DNA of 64,000 bases from Heterodontus francisci (taxonomy: Eukaryota): the NCBI RefSeq assembly GCF_036365525.1, contig NC_090404.1, positions 13,110,550 through 13,174,549 of the forward strand. The letters are read 5' to 3'. A program made the position numbers and the translations under genes. The notes below the pieces were generated by a model. That model searched no databases. It was not told the DNA's origin and saw only the letters and a program-made list of their open reading frames with translations. Of this stretch, positions 3,715-63,029 are shown piece after piece; the stretch's first letter is position 1; each line of letters begins with the position of its first letter.

Positions 3715-3880
3715 GCACAAATTTTCTTTATTATCAACCATATGACCAATCATTGTTATCACCTGGAAACTTCTTAATCAGAGCCCCTACATTTAAGGCT
3801 AAATCATTGATATATAACCATAAAAGTAAGCAGCCTAGTGCTGAGTTCTGTGGAAACCCAACTTGGTAAAGGCTTCCAGT
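3715..3880 (-). mobile_element. CR1 fragment in the 3' UTR of ZNF B, shared with ZNF H (53580-53720)
   Basis: Reverse complement matches gactggaagcct...tatatagcaatgatttagacttaaatgtagg at 53580-53700. Confidence 0.65.
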
Positions 3881-3940
3881 CAGAATTTAATTTTAGCTGT
3901 GATTAACAGCAGCAATAACAGCAGAATCCAAACCCTGCAG

Positions 3941-4690
3941 TCACTTGTGAACTCGCTGGTGTGTCAGAAGGTTGGATGATCGATTAAATCCCTCTCCACA
4001 AATGGAGCAGGTGAACGGCCTCTCCCCAGTGTGAATGCGCTGGTGTCTCAGCAGGACGGATGAATGAATGAATCCCTTCTCACACACGGAGCAGGTGAAC
4101 GACCTCTCCCCAGTGTGACTCCGCTGGTGAGTCCGAAGGTGAGATGACTGAGTGAATTCCTTCCCACAAATGGAGCAGGTGAACGGCCTCTCCCCAGTGT
4201 GGATTCTCTGGTGTTTCAGTAGGTTGGCTGACTGAGTGAATCCCTTCCCACATACGGGGCAGGTGAATGGCCTCTCCCCAGTGTGAACTCGCTTGTGTCT
4301 CAAAAGCTTGGATGCTTCAGTGAATCCCTTCTCACACACGGAGCAGATGAATGGCCTCTCCCCAGTGTGACTGCGTCGATGAGTTCCCAACTGGGATGGG
4401 GAAAGGAATCCCTTCCCACAGTCCGCACATTTCCATGGTTTCTCCGTGGTGTGGGTGTCCTTGTGTCTCTCCAAGTTGGACACTCACTTGAAACCCTGCC
4501 CACACACAGAACACGTGTACGGTTTCTTCCCGATGTGAATGGCGTGATGTTTTTTCAGGCTGTGTAACTGGTTAAAGCTCTTTCCACAGTCAGTGCACTG
4601 GAACACTCTCACCCGGATGTGTGTGTCTCGGTGCTTTTCCAGTCACACTGATATTTGAAATCTTTTCCCACAGAGAGAGCAGGCAAACAT
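3941..4690 (-). pseudogene. C2H2 ZNF B: 9-finger frame from ATG 4690, interrupted only by two TGA codons; the 6 C-terminal fingers are intact
   Basis: ORF 3941-4483 has six fingers and no ATG. The upstream frame MFACSLCGKRFQISV*LEKH... is continuous except for TGA at 4645-4643 and 4486-4484. Acceptor ttttacag|g at 4786/4785. The promoter region is replaced by a LINE at about 4950. Confidence 0.75.
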
Positions 4691-11489: not shown

Positions 11490-11767
11490 ACATAGTTCAA
11501 TCCTGGATGTGATTCACAGCAGCAATTACAGCAGAATCCAACCCCAGCTGCCACTGTGAACCCACTGGTGTTTCAGCAGATGGGATAACTGAGTAAATTC
11601 CTTCCCACACATGGAGCAGATGAATGGTCTCTCCCCAGAGTGGGTGAGTTGGTGTTTCAGCAGATCCTTTTTTAAAGCACTTCTCACAGTCAGAACATGT
11701 AAAAGGTCTCTGATCACTGTGTACAAGTTGATGTTTAGTGAGCCGGGATGACTCAGTAAATCCCTTC
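11490..11767 (-). pseudogene. 3' remnant of a C2H2 ZNF gene truncated by an LTR-like element
   Basis: [38 protein letters not shown] plus the family 3' tail; ends abruptly at tgtaag 11768. Confidence 0.8.
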
Positions 11768-13518
11768 TGTAAGAGTTCTGGGTCTTATTAACTGTAACAC
11801 TGTCAGTCTTTACCCAATTAATAATGATTTGTCCTTTTGAGAAAATGCAGGTAATAAGAGATAATCTGGTGCAATATCAGGAAACATTTATTAAGTAACA
11901 AAAGTAATACTTATCAAAAGTTAGGCAGCGACTTTACTGACTCAATGCAGGTCTTGCCTCCTGATTCAGCCTTGGGTGCAACTTGACACTTGATCTCCTC
12001 TGTCACTTCGGGTATGCAGTCTCCAAATTCACACTTTGCACCGTGAAGCTGCCGGCGAGTCTTCCCTTTCTGGTGCACTGCGCATGCTCATGATTAGTGG
12101 CGTTCCGGGCAGTGCATGATCAGCCTCCGATTGGTTCATGCAGACAATGATCAGCCTCCGATTGGTTCATGCAGACAATGATCAGCCTCTGAGTGGTTCA
12201 GGCAGTGCATGATCAGCCTCCGATTGGTTCAGGCAGTGCATGATCAGCTTCCGAGTGGGTCAGGCAGTGCATGATCAGCCTCTGACTGGTTCAGGCAGTG
12301 CATGATCAACCTCCGATTGGTTCAGGCAGTGCATGATGAGCCACTGATTGTTCTTTTTTCGAGTGGCAGTCACCTGCGGATGTCACTTCCTGAATGGTTC
12401 CCTCAGATGTCAGTCACGTGCGGAACAGTACCCCTTATTACAGCATTTTTAGTCCTTTTGTTGAATTTAATGGTTTTCTATGAAGATAATAGTGCCTCAT
12501 GAAATGCAGTACTCATCATTATAAAGTCTCCTTGTCCATTTAACTGAGATGAGAAAGCAGTATGGTGTAGGGTGCCAATCATTCTTTGAGGCGCATCGTC
12601 CTCAGTGTTAAATTAATGTATCAGTATCAATATCGCAGCTCCTATAGAATTCTCATTAAAACAGGGGCTTTATCATTGTTAAGGCTGAAAGGGCTGTATC
12701 ACTAGTGTGGGATGTTGAAGGGACCTGCCAGTGATTGGTACGAGTTAATTAAAAGTGAACAACATAACAAAATAAAACAATGACACATTACACAGCCTCA
12801 AGATGAATACAGAAATTACAAAACTACCTCATACATAAAATCTATACATATGTATGAAACCAGCATGTAAAGACAATCAGTGTGTAAAGATGACGTAGCA
12901 AGATACACTTACGAAATACAGCAGGATACACTCAATGAATACATAAGTAACAAGAGCAAAAGGAAAAAGACTACATAACTACAAAACTAATTACAGAACT
13001 TAATTCTTAAGCTTACAGAACCAAAGTAATACATAGGGCTATTCTATAATTCAAAAGAAAATGACTGCTTCTTTTTGAGGCATTGCTGCACAATTAACAA
13101 GTGAATGCCTTATGAAAAGAACTAACTAATTTAAAACACAGAACTCAAGGCTGAAGGCTCTGACAGTTGTTTTATATATCAGGTATAGATGATAAGTTTG
13201 AATGGTTAAGGAGTTTGTGTCCGGACACAGCTCCAGACACTGGACCATCCAATCTTGACTGTCTTCACAGCAATAACTCTGTGATTAAACCACAAACTGT
13301 AGTTTTACATGCAGGCCTCGGCCGTGTGGTATGTTTCACCTGTTAGATAAGAATTCAGCGACATCTTCACAGATAAAGATGCAGTCACATGGGAACAGTG
13401 TCCGACACAGATTATAATTAAGAATAATATATTAGGTTATTCGATTAATACAATTTGATTACTGATTATTACATATAACAGGACTACAAGCTAATTATTA
13501 AACAAGATTTTTACTACA
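11768..13518 (-). mobile_element. Solo-LTR-like element of about 1.75 kb (paralog at 58722-59854)
   Basis: Inverted termini tgta...taca. On the minus strand: an ETS-like caggaagtg, a CCAAT array, gcatgcgcag, then AATAAA near 11887-11892. Confidence 0.6.
12109..12352. repeat. 31-bp tandem repeat, about 7.8 copies, CCAAT-containing
   Basis: Unit gcagtgcatgatcagcctccgattggttcag starts at 12109, 12140, 12171, 12202, 12233, 12264, 12295 and 12326. Confidence 0.95.
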
Positions 13519-14335: not shown

Positions 14336-14776
14336 TTTTAAAATCACATTATAACAGACTGGGGAAGCTGGTATTAAAATAATATCTGGGTACACGGAGT
14401 TAGGTTGCAGATCAGCCATGATCTCATTGAATGACAGAACAGGATTGAGGGGCTGAATGGCTGACTCCTGTTCCTATGTCCCGAAAAAACTTGGACTCAA
14501 ACACAGCTGATGAATAGTCATGGTAGAACTGGAGAGAAGGCAGTGCAACAGGAAACCAGCTCTTGAGCAGAGTTAGACAGCTGGGGGACGTCTGAAGAGA
14601 AATTTCATAGGAATTGGAGGAAGGCCATTCAGCCCTTTGAGTCTGCTGCACCTTCAATTAGATCCTGGTTGATCGATTAATTATCAACAGAATCAAACCT
14701 CAACTATCAGAATGAAGATGGTTCCATCCTGGATGTGATCAACAGCAACAATAACAGCAGAATCTAACCCCTGCAG

Positions 14777-15763
14777 TCACTTGTGAACTCGCTGATGTTT
14801 CAGCAGGTGGGATAACTGCGTGAATCCCTTCCCACACATGGAGCAGGTGAACGGCTTCTCCCCAGTGTGAACTCGATTGTGTGTCAGAAGGTTGGATGAG
14901 TGATTAAATCCCTTCCCACACACGGAGCAGGTGAACGGCCTCTCTCCAGTGTGAACTCGCTCGTGTGTCAGAAGGTTGGATGATCGATTAAATCCCTGCC
15001 CACAAATGGAGCAGGAGAACGGCCTCTCCCCTTTGTGAACGCACTGGTGTGTCATAAGGTTGGACGATTGATTAAATCCCTTCCCACACACGGAGCAGGT
15101 GAATGGCCTCTCTCCAGTGTGAATTTCCTGGTGTCTCAGTAGGCTGGACAATTGATTAAATCCCTTCCCACACATGGAGCAGATGAACGGTCTCTCCCCA
15201 GTGTGAACGCGCTGGTGTGTCAGCAGGTTGGATGAAGTCGTAAATCCCTTCTCACACACAGAGCAGGTGAACGGCCTTTCCCCGGTGTGAACTCTCTGGT
15301 GTGTCAGCAGGTGGGATGACTGAGTGAATCCCTTCCCACACTCAGAGCAGGTGAATGGCCTCTCCCCAGAGTGAGCTCGCTGGTGTGTCAGCAGGTGGGA
15401 TGACTGAGTGAAGCCCTTCCCACACTCGGAGCAGGTGAATGGCCTCTCCCCAGTGTGACAGTGCTGATGAGTTTCAAGCTTCAACAGACAACTGAATCCC
15501 TTCCCACAGTCCCCACATTTCCATGGTTTCTTTGTGGCACGGGTGCCCTTATGTCTCTCCAGGTTGGTTGATAAGTTGAAGCCTTGGCCACACACAGACC
15601 ACGTGCAAAGTTTCTCACCGCGGATCTTTGGTTTGAGTTTCCCGTCTGTAGGTCCTCCCCTTCTAATACCCTGTTTCTCCCCACTGTGAATGGTGCGATA
15701 TTTTTTCAGGCTGTGTAACTGGTAAAAGCTCTTTCGACAGTCAGTGCACTGGAACACTCTCAC
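14777..15763 (-). CDS. C2H2 ZNF C: open 328-codon frame with 9 intact fingers; start codon uncertain
   Basis: Nine CxxC-x12-HxxxH fingers with TGERPF linkers. No 5' ATG in this exon frame (ACA at the MEKPW position; upstream ATG frameshifted). May be a pseudogene or need splicing. Confidence 0.65.
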
Positions 15764-22180: not shown

Positions 22181-22226
22181 CAGTGTGAACCCCTGGTAAA
22201 CTATTTATCATTTCAAAGTAAAATCA

Positions 22227-24134
22227 ATGTTTCTTTTATCAACAAAACACTTGAATATTTGTCAGTATTCCTGGAATTCCTATTCCGAGTTTCAGAATTA
22301 TAGCTGGGGGAAAGGAAATTATGATGCGATTAGGCAAGATTTAGGATGCGTAGGATGGGGAAGGAAACTGCAGGGGATGGGCACAATCGAAATGTGGAGC
22401 TTATTCAAGGAGCAGCTACTGCGTGTCCTTGATAAGTATGTGCCTGTCAGGCAGGGAGGAAGTTGTCGAGCGAGGGAGCCGTGGTTTACTAAAGAAGTTG
22501 AAGCGCTTGTCAAGAGGAAGAAGAAGGCTTATGTTAGGATGAGACGTGAAGGCTCAGTTAGGGCGCTTGAGAGTTACAAGCTAGCCAGGATGGATCTAAA
22601 GGGCGAGCTAAGAAGAGCAAGGAGAGGACACGAGAAGGCATTGGCGGATAGGATCAAGGAAAACCCTAAGGCTTTCTATAGGTATATCAGGAATAAAAGA
22701 ATGACTAGAGTTAGATTAGGGCCAATCAAGGATAGTAGTGGGAAGTTGTGTGTGGAATCAGAGGAGATAGGGGAAGCGTTAAATGAATATTTTTCGTCAG
22801 TATTTACAGTAGAGAAAGAAAATGTTGTCGAGCAGAATACTGAGATACAGACTACTAGGCTAGATGGGATTGAGGTTCACAAGGAGGAGGTGTTAGCAAT
22901 TTTGGAAAGTGTGAAAATAGATAAGTCCCCTGGGCCAGATGGGATTTATCCTAGGATTTTCTGGGAAGCCAGGGAGGAGATTGCAGAGCCTTTGTCCTTG
23001 ATCTTTATGTCGTCATTGTCGACAGGAATAGTGCCGGAATACTGGAGGATAGCAAATGTTGTCCCCTTGTTCAAGAAGGGGAGTAGAGACAGCCCTGGTA
23101 ATTATAGACCTGTGAGCCTTATTTCGGTTGTGGGTAAAATGTTGGAAAAGGTTATAAGAGATAGGATTTATAATCATCTTGAAAAGAATAAGTTCATTAG
23201 CGATAGTCAGCACGGTTTTGTGAAGGGTAGGTCATGCCTCACAAACCTTATTGAGTTTTTCGAGAAGGTGACAAAACAGGTGGATGAGGGTAAAGCAGTG
23301 GATGTGGTGTATGTGGATTTCAGTAAGGCGTTTGATAAGGTTCCCCATGGTAGGCTATTGCAGAAAATACGGAAGTATGGGATTGAAGGTGATTTAGAGC
23401 TTTGGTTCAGAAATTGGCTAGCTAAAAGAAGACAGAGGGTGGTGGTTGATGGCAAATGTTCATCTTGGAGTTTAGTTACTAGTGGTGTACCGCAAGGATC
23501 TGTTTTGGGGCCACTGCTGTTTGTCATTTTTATAAATGACCTGGATGAGGGTGTAGAAGGGTGGGTTAGTAAATTTGCAGATGACACGAAGGTCGGTGGA
23601 GTTGTGGATATTGCCGAAGGATGTTGTAGGTTACAGAGGGACATAGATAGGCTGCAGAGCTGGGCTGAGAGATGGCAAATGGAGTTTAATGCGGAAAAGT
23701 GTGAGGTGATTCACTTTGGAAGGAGTAACAGGAATGCAGAGTACTGGGCTAATGGGAAGATTCTTGGTAGTGTAGATGAGCAGAGAGATCTTGGTGTCCA
23801 GGTACATAAATCCCTGAAAGTTGCCACCCAGGTTAATAGGGCTGTTAAGAAGGCATATGGTGTGTTAGCTTTTATTAGTAGGGGGATCGAGTTTCGGAGC
23901 CACGAGGTCATGCTGCAGCTGTACAAAACTCTGGTGCGGCCGCACCTGGAGTATTGCGTGCAGTTCTGGTCACCGCATTATAGGAAGGATGTGGAAGCTT
24001 TGGAAAGGGTGCAGAGGAGATTTACTGGGATGTTGCCTGGTATGGAGGGAAGGTCTTACGAGGAAAGGCTGAGGGACTTGAGGTTGTTTTCGTTAGAGAG
24101 AAGGAGGAGGAGAGGTGACTTAATAGAGACATAA
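22227..24134 (+). CDS. CR1 ORF2 reverse transcriptase fragment (635 aa; the first about 24 codons are flank)
   Basis: KSPGPDGIYPR, NYRPVSL, QHGF, SGVPQGSVLGP, FADD and LEYCVQFWSP motifs; frameshift near 24130. Confidence 0.85.
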   Translation: MFLLSTKHLNICQYSWNSYSEFQNYSWGKGNYDAIRQDLGCVGWGRKLQGMGTIEMWSLFKEQLLRVLDKYVPVRQGGSCRAREPWFTKEVEALVKRKKKAYVRMRREGSVRALESYKLARMDLKGELRRARRGHEKALADRIKENPKAFYRYIRNKRMTRVRLGPIKDSSGKLCVESEEIGEALNEYFSSVFTVEKENVVEQNTEIQTTRLDGIEVHKEEVLAILESVKIDKSPGPDGIYPRIFWEAREEIAEPLSLIFMSSLSTGIVPEYWRIANVVPLFKKGSRDSPGNYRPVSLISVVGKMLEKVIRDRIYNHLEKNKFISDSQHGFVKGRSCLTNLIEFFEKVTKQVDEGKAVDVVYVDFSKAFDKVPHGRLLQKIRKYGIEGDLELWFRNWLAKRRQRVVVDGKCSSWSLVTSGVPQGSVLGPLLFVIFINDLDEGVEGWVSKFADDTKVGGVVDIAEGCCRLQRDIDRLQSWAERWQMEFNAEKCEVIHFGRSNRNAEYWANGKILGSVDEQRDLGVQVHKSLKVATQVNRAVKKAYGVLAFISRGIEFRSHEVMLQLYKTLVRPHLEYCVQFWSPHYRKDVEALERVQRRFTGMLPGMEGRSYEERLRDLRLFSLERRRRRGDLIET

Positions 24135-27985: not shown

Positions 27986-28574
27986 GGTATTGGAACGGGA
28001 AGATTTGCAGATGGGGAACTCACAGCAAACATCACCTCAAAATCTGACTCACTCAGTATATCAGGAGCTGAATGTCATTGGCTTTTTAATATAGAAGGAG
28101 AAATGTTTTAACCAGTTACATGGCCTGAAGAAACATTGCATCATTCACAGTTGGGAGAAATCGTTCAGGTGTTCTGTGTGGGAATGAGGTTTGAACTGAT
28201 CACCCAACCTGGAGATACAGGAGGACACCGGCATCACGGAGAAACCGTGGAAATGTGGGGACTGTGGGAAGGGATTCAGTTCCTCATCAAAGCTGGAAAC
28301 TCATCGGCGCAGTCACACTGGGGAGAGGCCGTTCACCTGCTCCATGTGTGGGAAGGGATTCACTCACTCATCCAACCATCCGAGACACCAGCAAATTCAC
28401 ACTGAGCAGAGTTCATTCGTCTGCTGCCTGTGTGGGAAGGTATTCAGTCATCCATTGAACCTTCTGAGACACCAGCAAATTCACACTGGGGAGAGGCTGT
28501 TCACCTGCTCTGTATGTGGGAAGGGATTCACTCAGTCATCCTACCTGCTGTCACACCAGCGAGTTCACATGTGA
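27986..28574 (+). pseudogene. C2H2 ZNF D, truncated (4 fingers); inverted paralog of ZNF A
   Basis: Acceptor tttgacag|g. The same deletion and TGAs as ZNF A (gaatgaggtttgaactgatc). ACG at the MEKPW position. Confidence 0.8.
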
Positions 28575-28679
28575 CTGCAGGGGTTAGATTCTGCTGTTAT
28601 TGTTGCTGTTAATTACATTCAGGACTGAATCTCGTTCATTCTGACAGTTGGGATTTGTTTCTGCTTGTGTTATTAAACA

Positions 28680-29300
28680 GCAGCTCATTTATATGGATTA
28701 TTATTCTGGATAAATGTCAAATAACATGTCAAGCTGTGTTTTAAACACATTGTTGTAGATTTTTGTCTTTCCCACCTGAGTGTTTAGCATCACCTGGCTG
28801 GAGCTCAGAAAGGACAATCTGGGGGGAGGATCGTACAGCAGGAACAGAACTTCAGCCTGGACACAGTCCTTCAGGATCACACTGAGAGGGACAAACGGCA
28901 CTTTGGTCTTTCTCGTCTCTCTTCACTGAGAGTAAAGTCCCCGTGTGGGTTAATCCTGAGGTGTGTAAGAAATGTGTCCCAGCCGCTCTCTTTCAGGGTC
29001 AGAGCTCCTGGGTACTGTACAGAAGGTTCCTTTACAGCGGTGTTTGGAGTCAGGAAGAACTCCAGAATGTTGGAAACGTGCTGTCAAATCAGAGATTGAT
29101 GTAAAACTGTGGATTTTTTGTGAATGAAAGTGAAATGGCTGGTTTAAATTTCCAGTCTGAAAATGACTGTGGTAATTATTCTACCAAGCTTTAATGTGTT
29201 TGTAGGATAGCTCATCGATTACCAATTTAAGACAATTGTTAACTTATTTAAAATAACCCCATTTAAAATAAATTGGTTAAACACTGTATGAACATTATAG
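28680..29300 (+). repeat. ZNF-associated 3' conserved element, copy B
   Basis: Aligns with copies A, C and D; AATAAA near 29267. Confidence 0.85.
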
Positions 29301-31497: not shown

Positions 31498-32382
31498 GGC
31501 ATTAGAAGGGAAGTATGGACAGACAGGGAAACTCAAAGCAAATATCACATCAAGATCTGACAGAGATGCTTAATTCATCGGTATCTAAATATCATTGACC
31601 TTTGAACATGGAAGCAAAAAGATCTGTTCATGGTGGGGAGAAACCGTACACATGTTCTGTGTGTGGACGAGGCTTCAGTCGATCATCTGGCCTGTCGAAA
31701 CACAAGCGCAGTCACAGTAGGGAGAAACCGTGTAAATGTGGGGAATGTGGGAAGGGATTTAATTACCCGTTTGATCTGGAAAGTCATCGATGCACTCATA
31801 CCGGGGAGAGACCAGTCACCTACTCCGTGTTTGAGAAGGGATTCACTTATTCATCCACCCTGCTGAGACACCAGCAAATTCACACTGGGGAGAGGGGATT
31901 CACTCGCTCTGTGTGTGGGAAGAGTTGCATGTTTTACTCTGCCGTGCTGAGACAACAGCAAGTTCACAATGATGAGAGACAGTTTCATTGTGCTGACTGT
32001 GACATGAGTTTTAAGAGCTGAAATGCACTGAGTGAGCACCAGCACATTCACACTGGTTACACATTGTTCAGCTGCTCTCACTGTGGGAAGAGGTTCGGGC
32101 AAACGTCCAGCTTGTTGATACACCAGTGAGTTCACACCGGGGAGAGGCCTTTCAAATTCCCAGACTGTGGGAAGTGCTGGGGAGCTGACGCACCTTCAGC
32201 CAGTTCACACTGAGGAGAGACCGTTCAGGTGCTCTCACTGTGGGACTGGCTTCAGGCGATCAGCTGACCTCACTGTACACCAACGTACTCATACTGGGGA
32301 GAGGACATTCACCTGTTCCATGTGTGGGAAGGGATTTACTCATTCATCCACCCTGCTGAGACACCAGCGAGTTCACAAGTGA
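31498..32382 (+). pseudogene. C2H2 ZNF E, disrupted
   Basis: Acceptor ttttacag|g, ATG 31608 ([16 protein letters not shown]), degenerate fingers, stops at 32019 and about 32128, later frameshifts. Confidence 0.8.
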
Positions 32383-32579
32383 CTGCAGGAGTTGGATTCT
32401 GCTGTTAATCAGATCAAGGACTGAACCATGTTCATCCTGTCAGGTGGGATCTGTTTCTGCTGATGTTAATAAACTCCAGCCCAGTTAGAAGGGCTAATAT
32501 TCTGGACAATTGCCAAATCAGCTTTATATGAAACACAGTGTGTCAATTCTTTTTAACATATCTAAGACAAGATAGTTCC

Positions 32580-36665: not shown

Positions 36666-37154
36666 CGTTTTCAAACATTACAACAGACTGGGGAAGCTAT
36701 TAAAATAATATCTGGGCACACGGAGTTAGGTTGCAGATCAGCCATGATCTCATTGAATGACAGAACAGGCTAAATGGACGACTCCTGTTCCTATGTCCCT
36801 AATAAACTTGGCCTCAAACACAGCTGATGAATGGACAGTCATGGGAGAACTGGGGAGAAGGCAGTGCAACAGGAAACCAGCACTTGAGCAGAGTTATAGA
36901 GTGGGGGAAGTCTGGGGAGAAATTTCAGAGGAACTGGAGTAGGCCATTCAGCCCATCGAGCCTGCTGCACCATTCAATTAGATCCTGGCTGATCAATTAG
37001 TCACCACTCCCTTGAAGAAATCAAGATTTATTTGACATTTATCCAGAATATTAAATTCCAGCGTTTTCTTTTCAACAGAAAGAAACCCTCAACTGTTGGA
37101 ACGAACAGAGATTCAGCCCTGGGTGTAATTAACAGCAAAATCCAACCCCTGCAA

Positions 37155-37829
37155 TCACTTGCGAACTCGCTGATGTCTCAGCAGTTGTGATGATTTTGTG
37201 AATCCCTTCTCACTCAAGGAAGAAATGTACGGCCTCCCGTCTGTGTGAACTCGCTGGTGTTTCAGCAGGGTGGACGATCGATTAAATCCCTTTCCACAAA
37301 TGGAGCAGGTGAACGGCCTCTCTCCAGTGTGAATGCGTTGGTGTCTCAGCAGGAGGGATGCATCCATGAATCCCTTCTCACATACAGAGCATATAAACGG
37401 CCTCTCCCCGGTGTGAACACGCTGGTGTGTCAGAAGCTGAGATGAATTAGTGAATCCTTTCTCACACACTGAGCAGGTGAACGGCCACTCGCCAGTGTGA
37501 ACTCGCTGGTGTGTCAACAGGTGAGATGACTGAGTGAATCTCTTCCCACACAGGGAGCAGGTGAACGGCCTCTCCCCAGAGTGCACTCGCTGGTGGCTCA
37601 GCAGATGGGACGACTGAGAGAATCCCTTCTCACACACTGAGCAGGTGAACGGCCTCTCCCCGGTGTGAATGCGCTGATGTCTCATAAGTTTGGAGGCTTC
37701 AGTGAATCCCTTCCCACACACCGAGCAGGTAAACGGCCTCTCCCCTGTGTGACTGCGCCGATGAGTTTCAAGCTGGGATGGGTAACTGAATCCCTTCCCA
37801 CAGTCCCCACATTTCCACTCTTTCTCCAT
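37155..37829 (-). CDS. C2H2 zinc-finger protein F (224 aa; 7 intact fingers plus 1 degenerate)
   Basis: accATGg start ([14 protein letters not shown]) and TGERPF linkers, with no interruptions. Confidence 0.8.
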   Translation of the reverse strand: MEKEWKCGDCGKGFSYPSQLETHRRSHTGERPFTCSVCGKGFTEASKLMRHQRIHTGERPFTCSVCEKGFSQSSHLLSHQRVHSGERPFTCSLCGKRFTQSSHLLTHQRVHTGEWPFTCSVCEKGFTNSSQLLTHQRVHTGERPFICSVCEKGFMDASLLLRHQRIHTGERPFTCSICGKGFNRSSTLLKHQRVHTDGRPYISSLSEKGFTKSSQLLRHQRVRK

Positions 37830-44850: not shown

Positions 44851-45682
44851 GTATTAGAAGAAGGGGAGGATTCACAGACGGGGAGCTGAAACCAAACATC
44901 ACTTCAACATCTGACAGTCATTCACTTCATCAGGATGTGAATATCATCAGCCATTGAACAGAGAGTCATAGAGAGATGCAGCACTGAAACAGGCCCTTCG
45001 GGCCACCAAGTCTGTGCCGACCATCAACCACCCATTTATACTAATCCTACATTAATCCTACATTAATCCCATATTTCCTACCACCTACCTACACTAGGGG
45101 CAATTTACAATGGCCAATTTACCTATCAACCTGCAAATCTTTGGCTTTGACATGGAAGGGAAAAGCACCGTTCACAGTGGGGAGAAACTGTATACGTGTT
45201 CTGTGTGCGGACGAGGCTACAGCCATTGATCTGGTCTATCAAGGCACAAGCACAGTCACACTGGGGAGAAACTGTGTAAATGTGGGGACTGTGGGAAGGG
45301 ATTTAGTTACCCATTTGAGCTGGAAATTCACCAGCGCATTCACACTGGGGAGAGACCGTTCACCTGCTCAGTGTGTGACAAGGGATTCACTGATGTCTCT
45401 GCCCTGCTGAAGCACCAGCGAGTTCACACAAATGAGAGACCTTTTAAGTGCCCAGATTGTGGGAAATGCTATAAAAGTTCTGGGGAACTGGCGTATCATC
45501 GTGTTCACACTGACGGGAGACCGTTCAGGTGCTCCCACTGCGGGACTGGGTTCAGGTGATCAGTTAACCTCACTGTACACCAGCGGAGTCACACTGGGGG
45601 GAGGCCATTCATCTGCTCTGTGTGTGGGAAGGGTTCCACTCGGTCATCCCACCTGCTGAGATACCAGCGAGTTCACAAGTGA
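44851..45682 (+). pseudogene. C2H2 ZNF G, disrupted (paralog of E)
   Basis: Acceptor ttttgcag|g, SINE insertion, ATG near 45151 ([12 protein letters not shown]), frameshift near 45225, stop at 45557. Confidence 0.8.
44960..45145 (-). mobile_element. 5'-truncated V-SINE inserted in the ZNF G exon
   Basis: Reverse complement of the SINE 3' half, flanked by ttgaaca/tttgaca. Confidence 0.8.
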
Positions 45683-45954
45683 CTGCAGGGTTTGGATTCT
45701 GCTCTGATTGCTGTTGATAACATCCAGGACTGAACTATGTTCATTCTGACATAGAAATCATAGTCATGGAAATTTACAGCACAGAATGAGGCCATTCAGC
45801 CCATTGTGTCCATGCTGGCCAACTAGTAGCCATCCAGCCTAATCCCAATTTCCAGTTGTTGGTCTGTAGCCCAGTAGGTTATGGCACTTCAGCTGCATAT
45901 GCAAGTACTTTTTAATGTTATCATGGTTTCTGCCTCTACCATCCTGTCAGACAG

Positions 45955-51620: not shown

Positions 51621-51649
51621 AAAATTATTTCCCATTTATGACCTAAGGA

Positions 51650-52050
51650 AATGGCTGTACCCAGCATTCCAGACGGAAGTGAATGTGCCCTAGTCACACT
51701 AACAGGAGCTCAGTGCGCAGGCGCAATGCTGGACAGCATCTGGAGCATGCGCAGTGTCACTGATCATAGCCGAGCGAATGTTGGAGAGGGCTTTATAGCA
51801 GGTGAGAGTCGGCGGGGCGCAGGGGAGGAATGGAGGAGCCAGCAGATGGGCGGGGAGGCTTCAGAAACACCTGGTGTAGGCCGAAAGTCCCAAATAAAAA
51901 CCTCCAGATCCCGCGTTTGCAACTCAGGCGATTTTTCTCGGAAGCGGTCCCGATATCGGCCGCCATCTTGGCTGAGCGGAGAGCAGGCCGCATGCGTGTC
52001 AAATTGGTGATGACGCAAAGAGTGGGCGGGGCTTCAGGGTCCCAGTGCCC
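51650..52050 (+). promoter_or_regulatory. CpG promoter and exon 1 of ZNF H
   Basis: ETS cggaagtg, NRF1-like gcatgcgc, donor cag|gtgaga after 51801, then ccgccatcttg (YY1), cgcatgcg and tgggcggggc. Confidence 0.72.
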
Positions 52051-52678
52051 AGGACAGAAAATCATTGACTCATTGATTTGATTCTCACTCTGCAACACAG
52101 GGGCTGGAGAACTGAACCGAGCTAGAGTAAAGGGAAGGAGAAAACTGGCCGTGGAGGAAAGAAATGGTGCGATGGGTTTGTATTTCAACACCGGGAGGAG
52201 AGAGAATGTTCGGGACGGGGATTTACAGCTTTGGGGGAACAACAGAGGAAAAATATTCTATGAAAACTAAAATTGTCTGTTGTGTATTTCTACCCTAGAC
52301 TTGCAGTGATGGCTTTAGTAAACTCCTTTTACGGTGGATTTGAAGGGGACGATTTGCAAACTCAAACCACATCACGTCAAGAACTGACAGTCACTTAATT
52401 CGCCAGGGCCTGAATATCATCAGCCTTTGAATGAGGAAGGAGAAATGTTTGTCTCTTCTGTCTGTGGGAAAAGATTTCAAACATCAGTGTGACTGGAAAA
52501 GCACCGAGACACACACACCCGAGTGAGAGTGTTCCAGTGCACTGACTGTGGAAAGAGCTTTAACCAGTTAGACAGCCTGTGTACCATTCACATTGGGGAG
52601 AAACTGTGCACGTGTTCTGTGTGTGGATGAGGCCTCAACTGATCATCCAAGCTGGAGAGACACAAGAATACCCACACC

Positions 52679-53521
52679 ATGGAGAAACCATGGAAATGTG
52701 GGGACTGCGGGAAAGGTTTCAGTTACCCATCACTGCTGGATACACATCGCCGCAGTCACACAGGGGAGAGGCCATTCACCTGCTCTGTCTGTGGGAAGGG
52801 ATTCACTGAAGCATCCCATCTTTTGAGACACAAGCACATTCACACTGGGGAGAGGCCGTTCACCTGCTCCATTTGTGGAAAAGGTTTTAATCAATCATCC
52901 ACCTTGCTGACACACCAGCGAGTTCACACTGGGGAGTGGCCATTCACCTGCTCAGTGTGTGAGAAGGGTTTCACTCGGTCATCCCACCTACTGACACACC
53001 AGCGAGTTCACACTGGGGAGAAGCCATTCACCTGCTCAGTGTGTGAGAAGGGATTCACTGAAGCATCCCACCTGCTGAGACACCAGCGCATTCACACTGG
53101 GGAGAGGCCGTTCACCTGCTCCACTTGTGGGCAGGGATTTAAGCAATCATCCCACCTGCTGACGCACCAGCGAGTTCACACTGGGCAGTGGCCATTCACC
53201 TGCTCCATGTGTGGAAAGGGATTTACTAATTCATCCCACCTTCTGACACACCAGCAAGTTCACACAAGGGAAAGGCGATTCACCTGCTCAGTGTGTGAGA
53301 AGGGATTCATTAATTCATCCCTCCTGCTGAGACACCAGCGCATTCACACAGGGGAGAGGCCGTTCACCTGCTCCATTTGTGGAGAGGGATTTAATCGATC
53401 ATCCACCCTGCTGTCACATCAGCGAGTTCACACTGGGGAGAGGCCATTCACTTGCTCCGTGTGCGGAAAGGGATTCACTCAGTCATCCAACCTGCTGAGA
53501 CATCAGCAAGTTCACATGTGA
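52679..53521 (+). CDS. C2H2 zinc-finger protein H (280 aa, 10 fingers)
   Basis: caccATGg start and ten intact fingers with TGE(R/K/W)PF-type linkers. Confidence 0.88.
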
Positions 53522-53914
53522 CTGGAGGGGTTGGATTCTGCTATTATTGCTGCTGTTAATCATATCCAGAACTGAATCTTGACTGGAAGCCTGTTTCCAC
53601 AGGGTTCTCAGCATTAGGCTGCTTGCCTTTCAAGGTTATATAGCAATGATTTAGACTTAAATGTAGGAGCCATGATAAGAAGTTTGCAGATGATACAAAA
53701 AATGATCATGTCCTTGATAATAAAGAAGAAAGCTGTAGAGTACAGAAAGATATCAATGAATTCATCAGGTGGGCTGAGAAGTGGCAAATGGAATTGAATC
53801 TGGAAACGTGTGAGGTAATGCTTTTGGGGACGGCAAACAAGGCAAGGGAATGCACAATAATATGGTAGGATGAAAAGTGTTGAAGGACAGAGTGTATAAA
53901 AGTAGGGCGATTAT

Positions 53915-60675: not shown

Positions 60676-61182
60676 TTTTAAAAATCACATTACAACAGAC
60701 AGGGGAAGCTGGTATTAAAATAATATCTGTGTACAGAGAGTTAGGTTGCAGATCAACCATGATCTCATTGAATGACAGAACAGGATCAAGGGGCTGAATG
60801 GCTGACTCCTGTTCCTATGTCCCTAATAAACTTGGACTTAAACTCAGCTGATGAATGGAAAGTCATGGGAGAACTAGGGAGAAGGCAGTGCAACAGGAAG
60901 CCAGCACTTGAGAAGAATTAGACAGTTGGGGAAGTCTGGGGAGAAAGTACATAGGAACTGGAGTAGGCCATTCAGCCCATCAAGCCTGCTGCACCATTCG
61001 ATTGGATCCTGAGTGATCAATTAATCTCCCCTCCTCTGAAAAAATTAAGATTTATTTGACATTTATTCAGCCCAATTATAGGGGTTATCATCAGGAGAAA
61101 GAAACCACAACTGTCAAAATGAACAGGTTCAGTCCTGGATGTGAGTAACAGCAGGAATAACAGCAGGATTCAACCCTTGGCA

Positions 61183-62102
61183 GTCAATCATGAACTTGCT
61201 GGTGTCTCAGCAGGTGGGATTAATTTGTGAATACTTTCCCACACACTGAGCAGGTGAATGGCCTCTCCCCAGTGTGTACTTGCTGGTGTCAGAAGGTGGG
61301 ATGATTAACTAAATCCCTTTCTACAAACAGAACAGGTAAACTGTCTCTCCTCAGTGTGAATGCGCTGGTGTCACAAAAGGTTGGATGCTTCAGTGAATCC
61401 CTTCTTACACACTGAGCCGGTGAAAGACCTCTCCCTGGTGTGCCAGAAGGTGGGATGAATTAGCGAATCCCTTCCTACGCACTGAGAAGGTGTACAGCCT
61501 TTCCCTGGTGTGTCAGCAGGGTGGACGACTGATTAAATCCCTTCCCACAAATGGAGCAGGTGAATGGCCTCTCCCCAGTGTGAACTCGCTGGTGTTTCAG
61601 CAGGAGAGATGAATAAATGAATTCCTTCTCACAGTTGGAGCTGTGGTAAATGGCCTCTCTCCGGTATGACTGCGCCAATGAGTTTCCAGCTTGGATGGGC
61701 AACTGAATCCCTTCCCACAGTCCGCACATTTCCACGGTTTCCCCGTGGCGTGGGTGCCATTATTGTCTCTCCACGTTGAATGATAAGTTGAAGCCTCGTT
61801 CACACACAGAACCCATTTACCGTTTCTCCCCACTGTGAATGGTGTGATGTTTTCTCAGGTGTGTAACTGGTTAAAGCTCTTTCCACAGTTAGTGCTCTCA
61901 TTCAGGTGTGTGTGTCTGTGTGCCTCGGTGCTTTTCTAATCACAGTGATGATTGAAATCTTTCCCCACAAACAGAAAAAACATTTCTCCTTTCAAATTCG
62001 AAGGCCGATGATATTCAGATCCTGATGAATCGAGTGACTGTCAGATCTTGATGTTATGTTTGGTTTCAGTTTCTTGACTGCAAAATATTCCCTTCTAAGA
62101 CC
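61183..62102 (-). pseudogene. C2H2 ZNF pseudogene I
   Basis: Multiple deletions and frameshifts in the finger array; acceptor tttgacag|g is intact at 62103/62102. Confidence 0.85.
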
Positions 62103-62750: not shown

Positions 62751-63029
62751 TACCGAATGCCGGGTAAGAGGTCCGCCATTGAAACTGTTAATTGTGGAAT
62801 CGTCAATGAATTTCTAAGGATCCTGGATGTGATTAATAACAGCTTTGGATAAATTTGCCTCAGAGGGAGTGCAATGAAGGCCCCATCACCTCTCGCGACC
62901 TGCCTTGCCTCTTTGGGTGGCGAAGCGGGGAACAATCAAACGTGGGAGCGAGTGGCCGAGAGAAGGGAAACGGCGTGACCTGGAGCTAGCGGCTGGAGGG
63001 GGACGGAGAGCGAGCAGGGAACAATCGGC

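Follow-up and report, generated by a model that had tools for sequence, protein, structure and literature searches.

Stop-codon readthrough in vertebrates has been described for genes that end in UGA followed by CUAG, among them AQP4, MAPK10, OPRK1, OPRL1, VDR, MDH1 and LDHB (PMC4132726; bioRxiv 10.64898/2026.07.14.738498), and CUAG is the validated vertebrate readthrough motif (PMC4132726). When the CUAG motif was mutated in a deep scan, readthrough fell for 764 of 765 changes, and CU at positions +4/+5 was common to all active variants (bioRxiv 10.64898/2026.07.14.738498). Reporter measurements put UGA-CUG at 2.05% in COS-7 cells (PMC5829715, Table S1) and at 1.84% in the HEK293T control, the fourth highest among 16 UGA-CNN contexts; the same source gives 2.85% for UGA-CUA, 0.31% for UGA-UUG in a mammalian reporter, and a UGA median of 0.19% (PMC5829715). 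Structure-stimulated readthrough, of the alphavirus or gammaretrovirus type, is reported with a conserved stem or pseudoknot that starts at least 8 nt after the stop (PMC13517186). Comparative readthrough screens exclude first stops that are sense in relatives, as possible nonsense substitutions (PMC5100048). New stops also arise by mutation, the change from CGA to TGA being about ten times commoner than changes of other codons to stops in the data of PMC10471768.

Here we analyzed a 64-kb stretch of DNA, referred to as the window, in which an initial annotation had noticed a frame-preserving peptide behind the terminal TGA-CTG of zinc-finger gene copies and had proposed a programmed readthrough isoform with a functional tail. 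Its premise that UGA followed by C is leaky is correct, as the reporter values for UGA-CUG indicate. We nevertheless consider it probable that the copies inherited the shared tail as part of one gene end whose stop codon is labile, in a family undergoing CpG decay, and that no dedicated stop-skipping is involved.

A zinc-finger gene cluster with a shared gene end

The window contains a cluster of tandem C2H2 zinc-finger genes amid LINE fragments. The gene end is present in ten copies by blastn, with A, B, R, C, F and I on the minus strand and D, E, G and H on the plus strand (Table 1), and every DNA-level statistic given here refers to these ten copies within the 64-kb window. All copies have the tandem C2H2 architecture, i.e., C-x2-C-x12-H-x3-H arrays with TGERP-type linkers. 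Frame analysis identified two ATG-intact genes, H (280 aa, 10 fingers) and F (224 aa, 7 fingers and a degenerate last one); B, C and D have an open reading frame with ACG or ACA at the usual start site, while A, R, E, G and I carry frameshifts or in-frame stops. Copies E, with in-frame TGAs and a frameshift, and G, with in-frame TGAs, are clear pseudogenes. Pfam assigned ten PF00096 stretches to H, which opens with its first finger. A KRAB domain was absent from the best 25 of 38 families listed for H and from the 14 families for the horn-shark model P0004, and the upstream ORF at 51642-52007 matched 0 families. The tree of the copies (195 columns) was star-like with supports of 24–60; it orders no events, and the deletions in E and F are indistinguishable as one event or two.

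Table 1. Coordinates of the gene-end copies and of associated features within the window
Feature	Position	Strand	Basis
Copy H, C2H2 ORF from ATG to TGA, 280 aa, 10 fingers	52679..53521	+	frame analysis and Pfam
H, first stop TGA-CTGG (TGA 53519-53521), 17-codon tail (53522-53572), second stop TGA (53573-53575)	53519..53575	+	
H, in-frame upstream ORF to TGA-CTG (52490-52492), then relic fingers	52445..52678	+	
H, decayed LINE reverse-transcriptase piece (presumably CR1-type) replacing the family 3' UTR	53581..53850	+	tblastn
Copy D, TGA, 17-codon tail, TGA; upstream frame open, usual start ACG	28572..28628	+	
D, shared 3' UTR homology beyond second stop, ATTAAA at +101	28629..28722	+	
Copy B, TGA, 15-codon tail, early TAA; upstream frame open, usual start ACG	3893..3943	-	
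Copy C, TGA, second stop changed to GGA, 27-codon tail; upstream open without usual ATG	14693..14779	-	
Copy E (pseudogene), TGA, 13-codon tail, 12-nt deletion	32380..32424	+	
Copy F, TGA-TTG, 13-codon tail, same 12-nt deletion as E; ATG-intact, last finger degenerate	37113..37157	-	
Copy G (pseudogene), TGA, 16-codon tail, 3-nt deletion	45680..45733	+	
Copy A (pseudogene), TGA, tail codon 2 is TAA	2174..2230	-	
Copy I (pseudogene), TGA, tail with +1 insertion	61129..61186	-	
Remnant R, TGG at stop position, out of finger frame; tail without stop or indel	11497..11553	-	

The usual start site (52679-52681 in H; 37829, minus strand, in F) reads ATG in F and H, ACG in A, B, D and I, and ACA in C. 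The ACG of B has A at -3 and G at +4, and among shark models both TTEKPWKC and TMEKP occur at this site. Either the ATG was made by CpG decay or ACG serves as a near-cognate start, and B and D may not be pseudogenes. A short upstream ORF recurs in H (52445-52492) and, on the minus strand, in B (4645), C (15796), F (38019) and I (61942). It shares the reading frame of the main ORF in H and B and may be a regulatory uORF. The shared stop of this upstream ORF is TGA-CTG in B, C and H, TGA-TTA in I and TAA in F, and relic fingers follow; those of H contain two further TGA at Arg-type positions. Two more features were recorded on the minus strand: a 21-nt fragment of tail DNA at 62823-62843, upstream of the copy I promoter, which is perhaps a remnant of another gene end, and a tandem repeat of ~40 nt at about 12140-12360, upstream of remnant R, which shows up as a repeating peptide on translation.

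The tail behind the stop codon and its extent

The tail peptides and coordinates reported in the initial annotation were all correct, for H, D, B, C, G, E and F as well as for the TAA in A and the +1 insertion in I. The tail-start pattern occurred at 9 sites in the window versus 0.00 expected from 100 shuffles. The first stop is TGA in 9/9 stop-bearing copies, with CTG next in eight of them, and the 17-codon stretch shared by paralogous C2H2 copies between the terminal TGA and the second stop is real. The peptide is mildly hydrophobic (GRAVY 0.64) and ends in polar residues. It belongs to no family in Pfam, and its Atlas matches were all below 0.9 and driven by the fingers. A full-text literature query with two tail pieces, its scope excluding most subscription papers, found no paper on the motif, and none of the papers listed for shark zinc-finger clusters named it in the title or the first part of the abstract.

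Conservation had seemed to be confined to the tail, but homology passes the second stop in 8/10 copies, continuing for ~40–100 nt in A, R, C, D, E, F and I and for 18 nt in G. AATAAA or ATTAAA hexamers lie at +89 to +131 in D, E, F and I, and the shared homology reaches them. In H and B, conservation appears to end with the tail because a LINE piece begins at 53581 in H and is shared by B. This piece, which we take to be of CR1 type, has 41% identity over 93 aa (E=1e-18, tblastn) to the LINE ORF at 22200-24134, and B shares H's downstream DNA at 78% over 223 nt. The LINE-derived replacement of the 3' UTR is common to H (53581-53850) and B (about 3720-3890, minus strand), and on sequence similarity the two would be sister duplicates, lying near opposite ends of the window and inverted relative to each other. 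The ORF at 22200-24134 is itself a LINE reverse-transcriptase frame with 644 codons open, apparently a young insertion.

The end of the tail shifts even in open-frame copies, giving 15 aa in B and 27 aa in C (range 13–27 aa). The statement that the tail is broken only in clear pseudogenes is true as such, but E and G, which account for two of the three deletions that keep the frame, are clear pseudogenes as well. Breaks inside the tail were found in 0/5 open-frame copies versus 2/5 pseudogenes (Fisher P=0.44; P=0.17 with R counted as broken). The TGG of remnant R, which had been read as a sense codon at the stop position, lies outside the finger frame, with a 1-nt deletion just upstream; adjacent bases are changed too, and we rejected it as a sign of an ancestral Trp. 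An origin of the TGA from a 1-nt insertion in the H-S-D linker (CAC AGT GAC) was also considered, and the shifted frame was not finger-like.

Relatives with a sense codon at the stop position

We built a tail profile from seven window tails and conducted two protein searches. The closest named relatives of the tail were gene models of Heterodontus francisci (horn shark), which points to a shark-like fish as the source of the DNA, and the motif recurs as a C-terminus in shark zinc-finger genes. Seven natural in-frame tails were recovered, with Arg in four, Gln, Cys and Ile in one each and Trp in none at the stop position; 5/7 end exactly at the second stop. Four of them are horn-shark segments (two with Arg, one with Gln and one with Ile), located at the C-terminus of P0003, in P0004, in P0005 and inside P0003, the internal segment reading HQ-R-LQELDSAVHQIKD, i.e., Arg at the stop position. 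The relatives without a species name are P0008 (Arg), P0011 (Cys) and P0012 (Arg). The representative search gave 8 matches, with the tail in P0004, P0005, P0008, P0011 and P0012; P0007 and P0009 were left out, and P0010 was dropped as an unrelated repeat. P0006, among the four matches of the other search, is without the tail. P0012 joins one finger and the in-frame tail to a receptor-like membrane protein and is probably a fused gene prediction. The sense-codon relatives are automated, fused gene models chosen by tail search, which give no frequency among genes; they show a sense codon in the DNA, and speak neither for protein production nor for commonness.

With full-length H as the query, three named cartilaginous-fish proteins stood among the 120 listed matches, none with the tail; ordinary-sized shark multi-finger proteins were absent from these matches, and no tail frequency follows from them. 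A tail-focused query of proteins of 154–492 aa gave 11 candidates, none scored, and a tail-only query was too weak to use (E>600 in a local test).

Copy E and residues 1–202 of horn-shark P0003 are collinear at 76% (59–63% for the next best copy), and the short tail HQ-R-LQELDSAVHQIKD follows in P0003. These residues are the orthologue of copy E; they have an Arg where E has the stop and share its short tail, so that the 13-residue tail is older than the split of the two species compared. Copy E (31566-32424) is a decayed orthologue, at 76% over 203 aa, of a horn-shark gene that is intact and has distinctive fingers, a case of lineage-specific loss. The first stop is thus not kept as a stop in the orthologue of E (Arg), E being the only copy whose orthologue was identified. 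The models with Arg, Gln and Ile at the stop position support the alternative that the initial annotation had also raised, namely that the tail was coding until CGA changed to TGA, or that the site switches between these two codons.

Origin of the terminal TGA

The Arg codon of the HQRVH motif reads CGA in 18 cases, CAA in 7 and TGA in 1 (45 motif matches), and seven horn-shark CGA-type Arg positions are now CGA (3), TGA (2) and CAA (2) in copy E. CpG decay is active in these zinc-finger genes, and the residues at the stop position (Arg 4, Gln 1, Trp 0) would fit CGA as the hub of these changes. Under a model of single-step TGA loss, at least four Arg among five has a probability of about 0.06 and the lack of Trp one of about 0.18, with matches that are maybe non-independent. 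Other shared TGA occur at Arg-type positions in the same genes, one of which is also TGA-CTG and a stop in 5/5 copies. The TGA-CTG of the 5' relic is followed by a frame-preserved peptide that is cut by further TGAs, and it mimics the tail at a place where readthrough could give no product in B, F and H.

At the terminal site 9/9 codons are TGA, with no CGA or CAA, for which independent decay has a probability of about 1e-5. Since this is too improbable as independent decay, the terminal TGA is old and has been kept: either it was fixed before the cluster radiated, the tree being star-like, or it was kept by selection. The simplest account would be an early change from CGA to TGA, after which some genes retained or regained the older state.

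Constraint on the tail

The 33 distinct changes in the tail comprise 11 synonymous, 20 non-synonymous and 2 stop-making ones. The initial annotation had seen many synonymous differences, but their number is at chance level, with 9.4±1.9 expected by position shuffling (P=0.27; P=0.61 and 0.71 for frames +1 and +2). Omega was about 0.79 overall, which is not significant, 0.67 in the five open copies (7/17 synonymous, P=0.23) and 0.86 in pseudogenes, and the gap between the last two is not significant either. As a control, 31 internal fingers of open genes had 31/75 synonymous changes versus 20.1 expected (omega about 0.52); this finger-scaffold control reached P<0.05 in 41/60 tail-sized subsamples, i.e., a power of about 70%, and the binomial power of the tail codon test was 0.94 for omega 0.3 and 0.52 for omega 0.5. 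The last finger alone gave 22 synonymous changes versus 19.2 (P=0.20 whole, 0.13 scaffold). Because the last finger itself carries no significant signal, the copies as a set are near-neutral and the test is weak. Strong purifying selection on the tail is unlikely, and mild selection is compatible with the data. A new in-frame stop was observed in two copies versus 1.99 expected neutrally, and the tail is open in all five open-frame copies.

Three of the four tail indels are multiples of three (binomial P=0.11), versus 1/7 downstream by hand count (Fisher P=0.088, or 0.18 if the 12-nt deletion is one event). This excess can be explained by repeats, as the microhomology caveat of the initial annotation had anticipated: the strongest internal repeat of the tail, 8–9 nt long, has an offset of 12, the length of the E/F deletion, and the next best repeats (B-type tail) are 5 nt at offsets 9 and 3. 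Since the repeats are spaced at 12, 9 and 3 nt, a slippage deletion leaves the frame intact without selection. Of the deletions that keep the frame, those of E and G affect pseudogenes and that of F a gene. The 3-periodic internal repeat may be a legacy of coding.

The distance from H to C, F, I and B is 0.172 in the tail, 0.187 in the last finger, 0.195 in the first coding finger, 0.168 in the 5' UTR/intron and 0.133 in the relic fingers, and the promoter of H gave 0.152 (three copies). The upstream-ORF/relic-finger region is the best conserved part measured, and the tail is conserved no better than the genes' own 5' non-coding DNA. Divergence from the column majority affects 45/483 tail sites, compared with 98/834 in the last finger (Fisher P=0.20) and 44/347 in the next 54 nt (P=0.14). 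In a column permutation with the same 8 copies, the tail (0.087) lay below the next 54 nt (0.127) with a one-sided P=0.039, and a free-window scan of the same dip gave P=0.055–0.34. Among the signs of constraint, this lower divergence of the tail is the strongest, although still weak.

These results bear on the proposal of functional readthrough, according to which UGA-CUG was kept since a few per cent of ribosomes add a 17-residue effector or degron tail, constitutive in sense-codon paralogues and dosage-limited in those with TGA. By analogy with mammalian reporters, trace readthrough of about 1–2% is likely for the UGA-CUG copies, well above the UGA median; CU at +4/+5 is kept in 8/9 copies, and the mild hydrophobicity of the tail and the weak constraint trends (P 0.04–0.17) point in the same direction. 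The horn-shark models encode the tail as protein, and the second stop is as old as the tail. Yet the contexts are CUGC in six copies and CUGG, CUGU and UUGC in one each, with CUAG in 0/9, and nearly every mutation of CUAG in the deep scan lowered readthrough (bioRxiv 10.64898/2026.07.14.738498). Copy F, one of the two ATG-intact genes, has TGA-TTG, the context with 0.31% in the reporter; tail length varies from 13 to 27 aa among open-frame copies, and the sense codon in relatives is an exclusion criterion in comparative screens (PMC5100048). No significant synonymous excess was seen, new stops are at the neutral level, conservation equals that of 5' non-coding DNA, and Pfam and Atlas gave no match beyond the fingers. 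We found no significant coding signature and no covarying RNA structure in these copies, so that the programmed readthrough proposed at first is unsupported, and we regard functional readthrough as unlikely. If the motif were functional, it would be a candidate effector for the KRAB-less zinc-finger proteins of cartilaginous fish and the first family-wide vertebrate case of readthrough.

A related reading takes the 17-residue motif as an effector or stability module of a KRAB-less shark zinc-finger family that is tuned gene by gene at one codon, with full inclusion with a sense codon, about 2% with UGA-CUG and near none with UGA-UUG. This is quite unlikely in our judgment; if true, it would constitute a family-wide readthrough switch in many vertebrate paralogues, set by CpG mutation.

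RNA structure, splicing and other recoding

The stretch could also be constrained as RNA or DNA, with the open frame incidental, through a hairpin covering the stop, a 5' splice site or a binding site in the 3' UTR. Divergence is 0.07–0.08 from -11 to +42 versus 0.13–0.14 on either side, a dip that is not significant with a free window. Minimum-energy folding of B, C and D yields a hairpin over the stop (+1 to +29), in which 85.5% of cells pair; however, compensatory changes were found in 0/11 of its pairs and in 0/27 pairs of the longer consensus fold, and fold z-scores ranged from -0.27 to -3.73 with structures differing between copies. This recurring hairpin overlaps the stop, unlike the downstream elements of structure-stimulated readthrough. 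Rfam gave 0 matches at the gathering threshold over the 64 kb, SECIS included, and a tRNA scan found none in the window. In copies ending in Lys, the terminal stop forms part of a sequence resembling a 5' splice site, CAA/GTGACT (53511-53524 and the homologous positions). Horn-shark P0006 leaves the finger array exactly after HK, the stop-equivalent point, an exit that a putative donor CAA/GTGACT would give. Overall, we judge constraint of this kind to be decidedly unlikely.

Other recoding of the UGA, by selenocysteine insertion or by A-to-I editing to UGG in the local hairpin, is highly improbable: the stop's A is paired in the predicted hairpin in 10/10 copies and Cys stands at the stop position in one relative, P0011, but the window has neither an Rfam match (SECIS included) nor a tRNA, Trp is absent from the seven natural sense versions, the predicted hairpin is short (about 10 bp), and ADAR disfavours G as the 5' neighbour.

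A probable inherited gene end with a labile stop

The tail makes up the opening 54 nt of a gene end that descended by duplication from one ancestral shark zinc-finger gene, within a shared block that extends between the last finger and a point about 100–150 nt beyond the first stop. The first-stop codon is labile in the family, as it is TGA here and, according to the automated models, sense in several horn-shark genes, in which the same 17 residues form an ordinary C-terminus ending at the second stop. Most likely it arose when methyl-CpG deamination turned an Arg CGA into TGA at an early stage of the family, so that a relic of the coding tail stayed behind in the 3' UTR; a later loss of the stop in single genes would give the same picture. 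Copies with TGA would terminate normally nearly always, and a leak of about 1–2%, as in mammalian reporters, would be a by-product of the following CUG. The leaked form would be cleared or irrelevant, a general pathway for clearance being described in PMC10364623. Nothing seen in this analysis indicates selection for a leaked product.

The frame looks preserved because the stretch is short, seldom mutates to a stop and has repeats 12, 9 and 3 nt apart. Against the inherited gene end stand the dip between tail and downstream DNA, the indels in multiples of three, and the open tails and omega of the open copies, all of them weak trends (P 0.04–0.17), together with the LINE boundary in H and B, which lies 5 nt after the second stop and spared the tail (one event). 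The most likely reading is ordinary turnover of a gene family with a shared gene end, in which the stop was gained or lost. As a caution, conservation among paralogues and repeat-driven deletions can mimic a readthrough signature.

Comparison with known systems

The clustered, fast-turnover multi-finger genes with many pseudogenes resemble the KRAB-ZNF and cyprinid FiNZ-ZNF families (PMC10547256). In that source's description, with which we compared them, KRAB and FiNZ are N-terminal, acidic and on an exon of their own, FiNZ having 28 residues, whereas the tail motif sits at the C-terminus, is mildly hydrophobic and, in this cluster, follows a stop. The SGTA-BAG6-RNF126 system clears incidental readthrough products and by analogy could remove a leaked hydrophobic tail (PMC10364623); as presented there it is quality control and no programmed degron, and the tail here ends in polar residues.

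Like the UGA-CUAG genes, the copies have UGA, CU at +4/+5 and a short open extension to a second stop that is kept across species. Unlike them, they have CUGC, CUGG, CUGU or UUGC as the context, a sense codon at the first stop in relatives and no significant coding signature, and they belong to a young multi-copy family with at least half pseudogenes rather than to single-copy orthologues. New stops by CGA-to-TGA change, and stop loss that recruits a downstream stop, correspond to scenarios a and c in Fig. 4 of PMC10471768. The locus shares with the cases shown there the Arg or Gln in relatives, the TGA here, the downstream stop that ends the sense-codon genes and CpG decay elsewhere in the genes; it differs in that the change is seen across paralogues of one expanding family and may have run in either direction. 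The locus behaves like an ordinary C-terminal gain or loss of a stop (PMC10471768) and not like the UGA-CUAG genes, from which it departs in the motif and in the conservation of the first stop.
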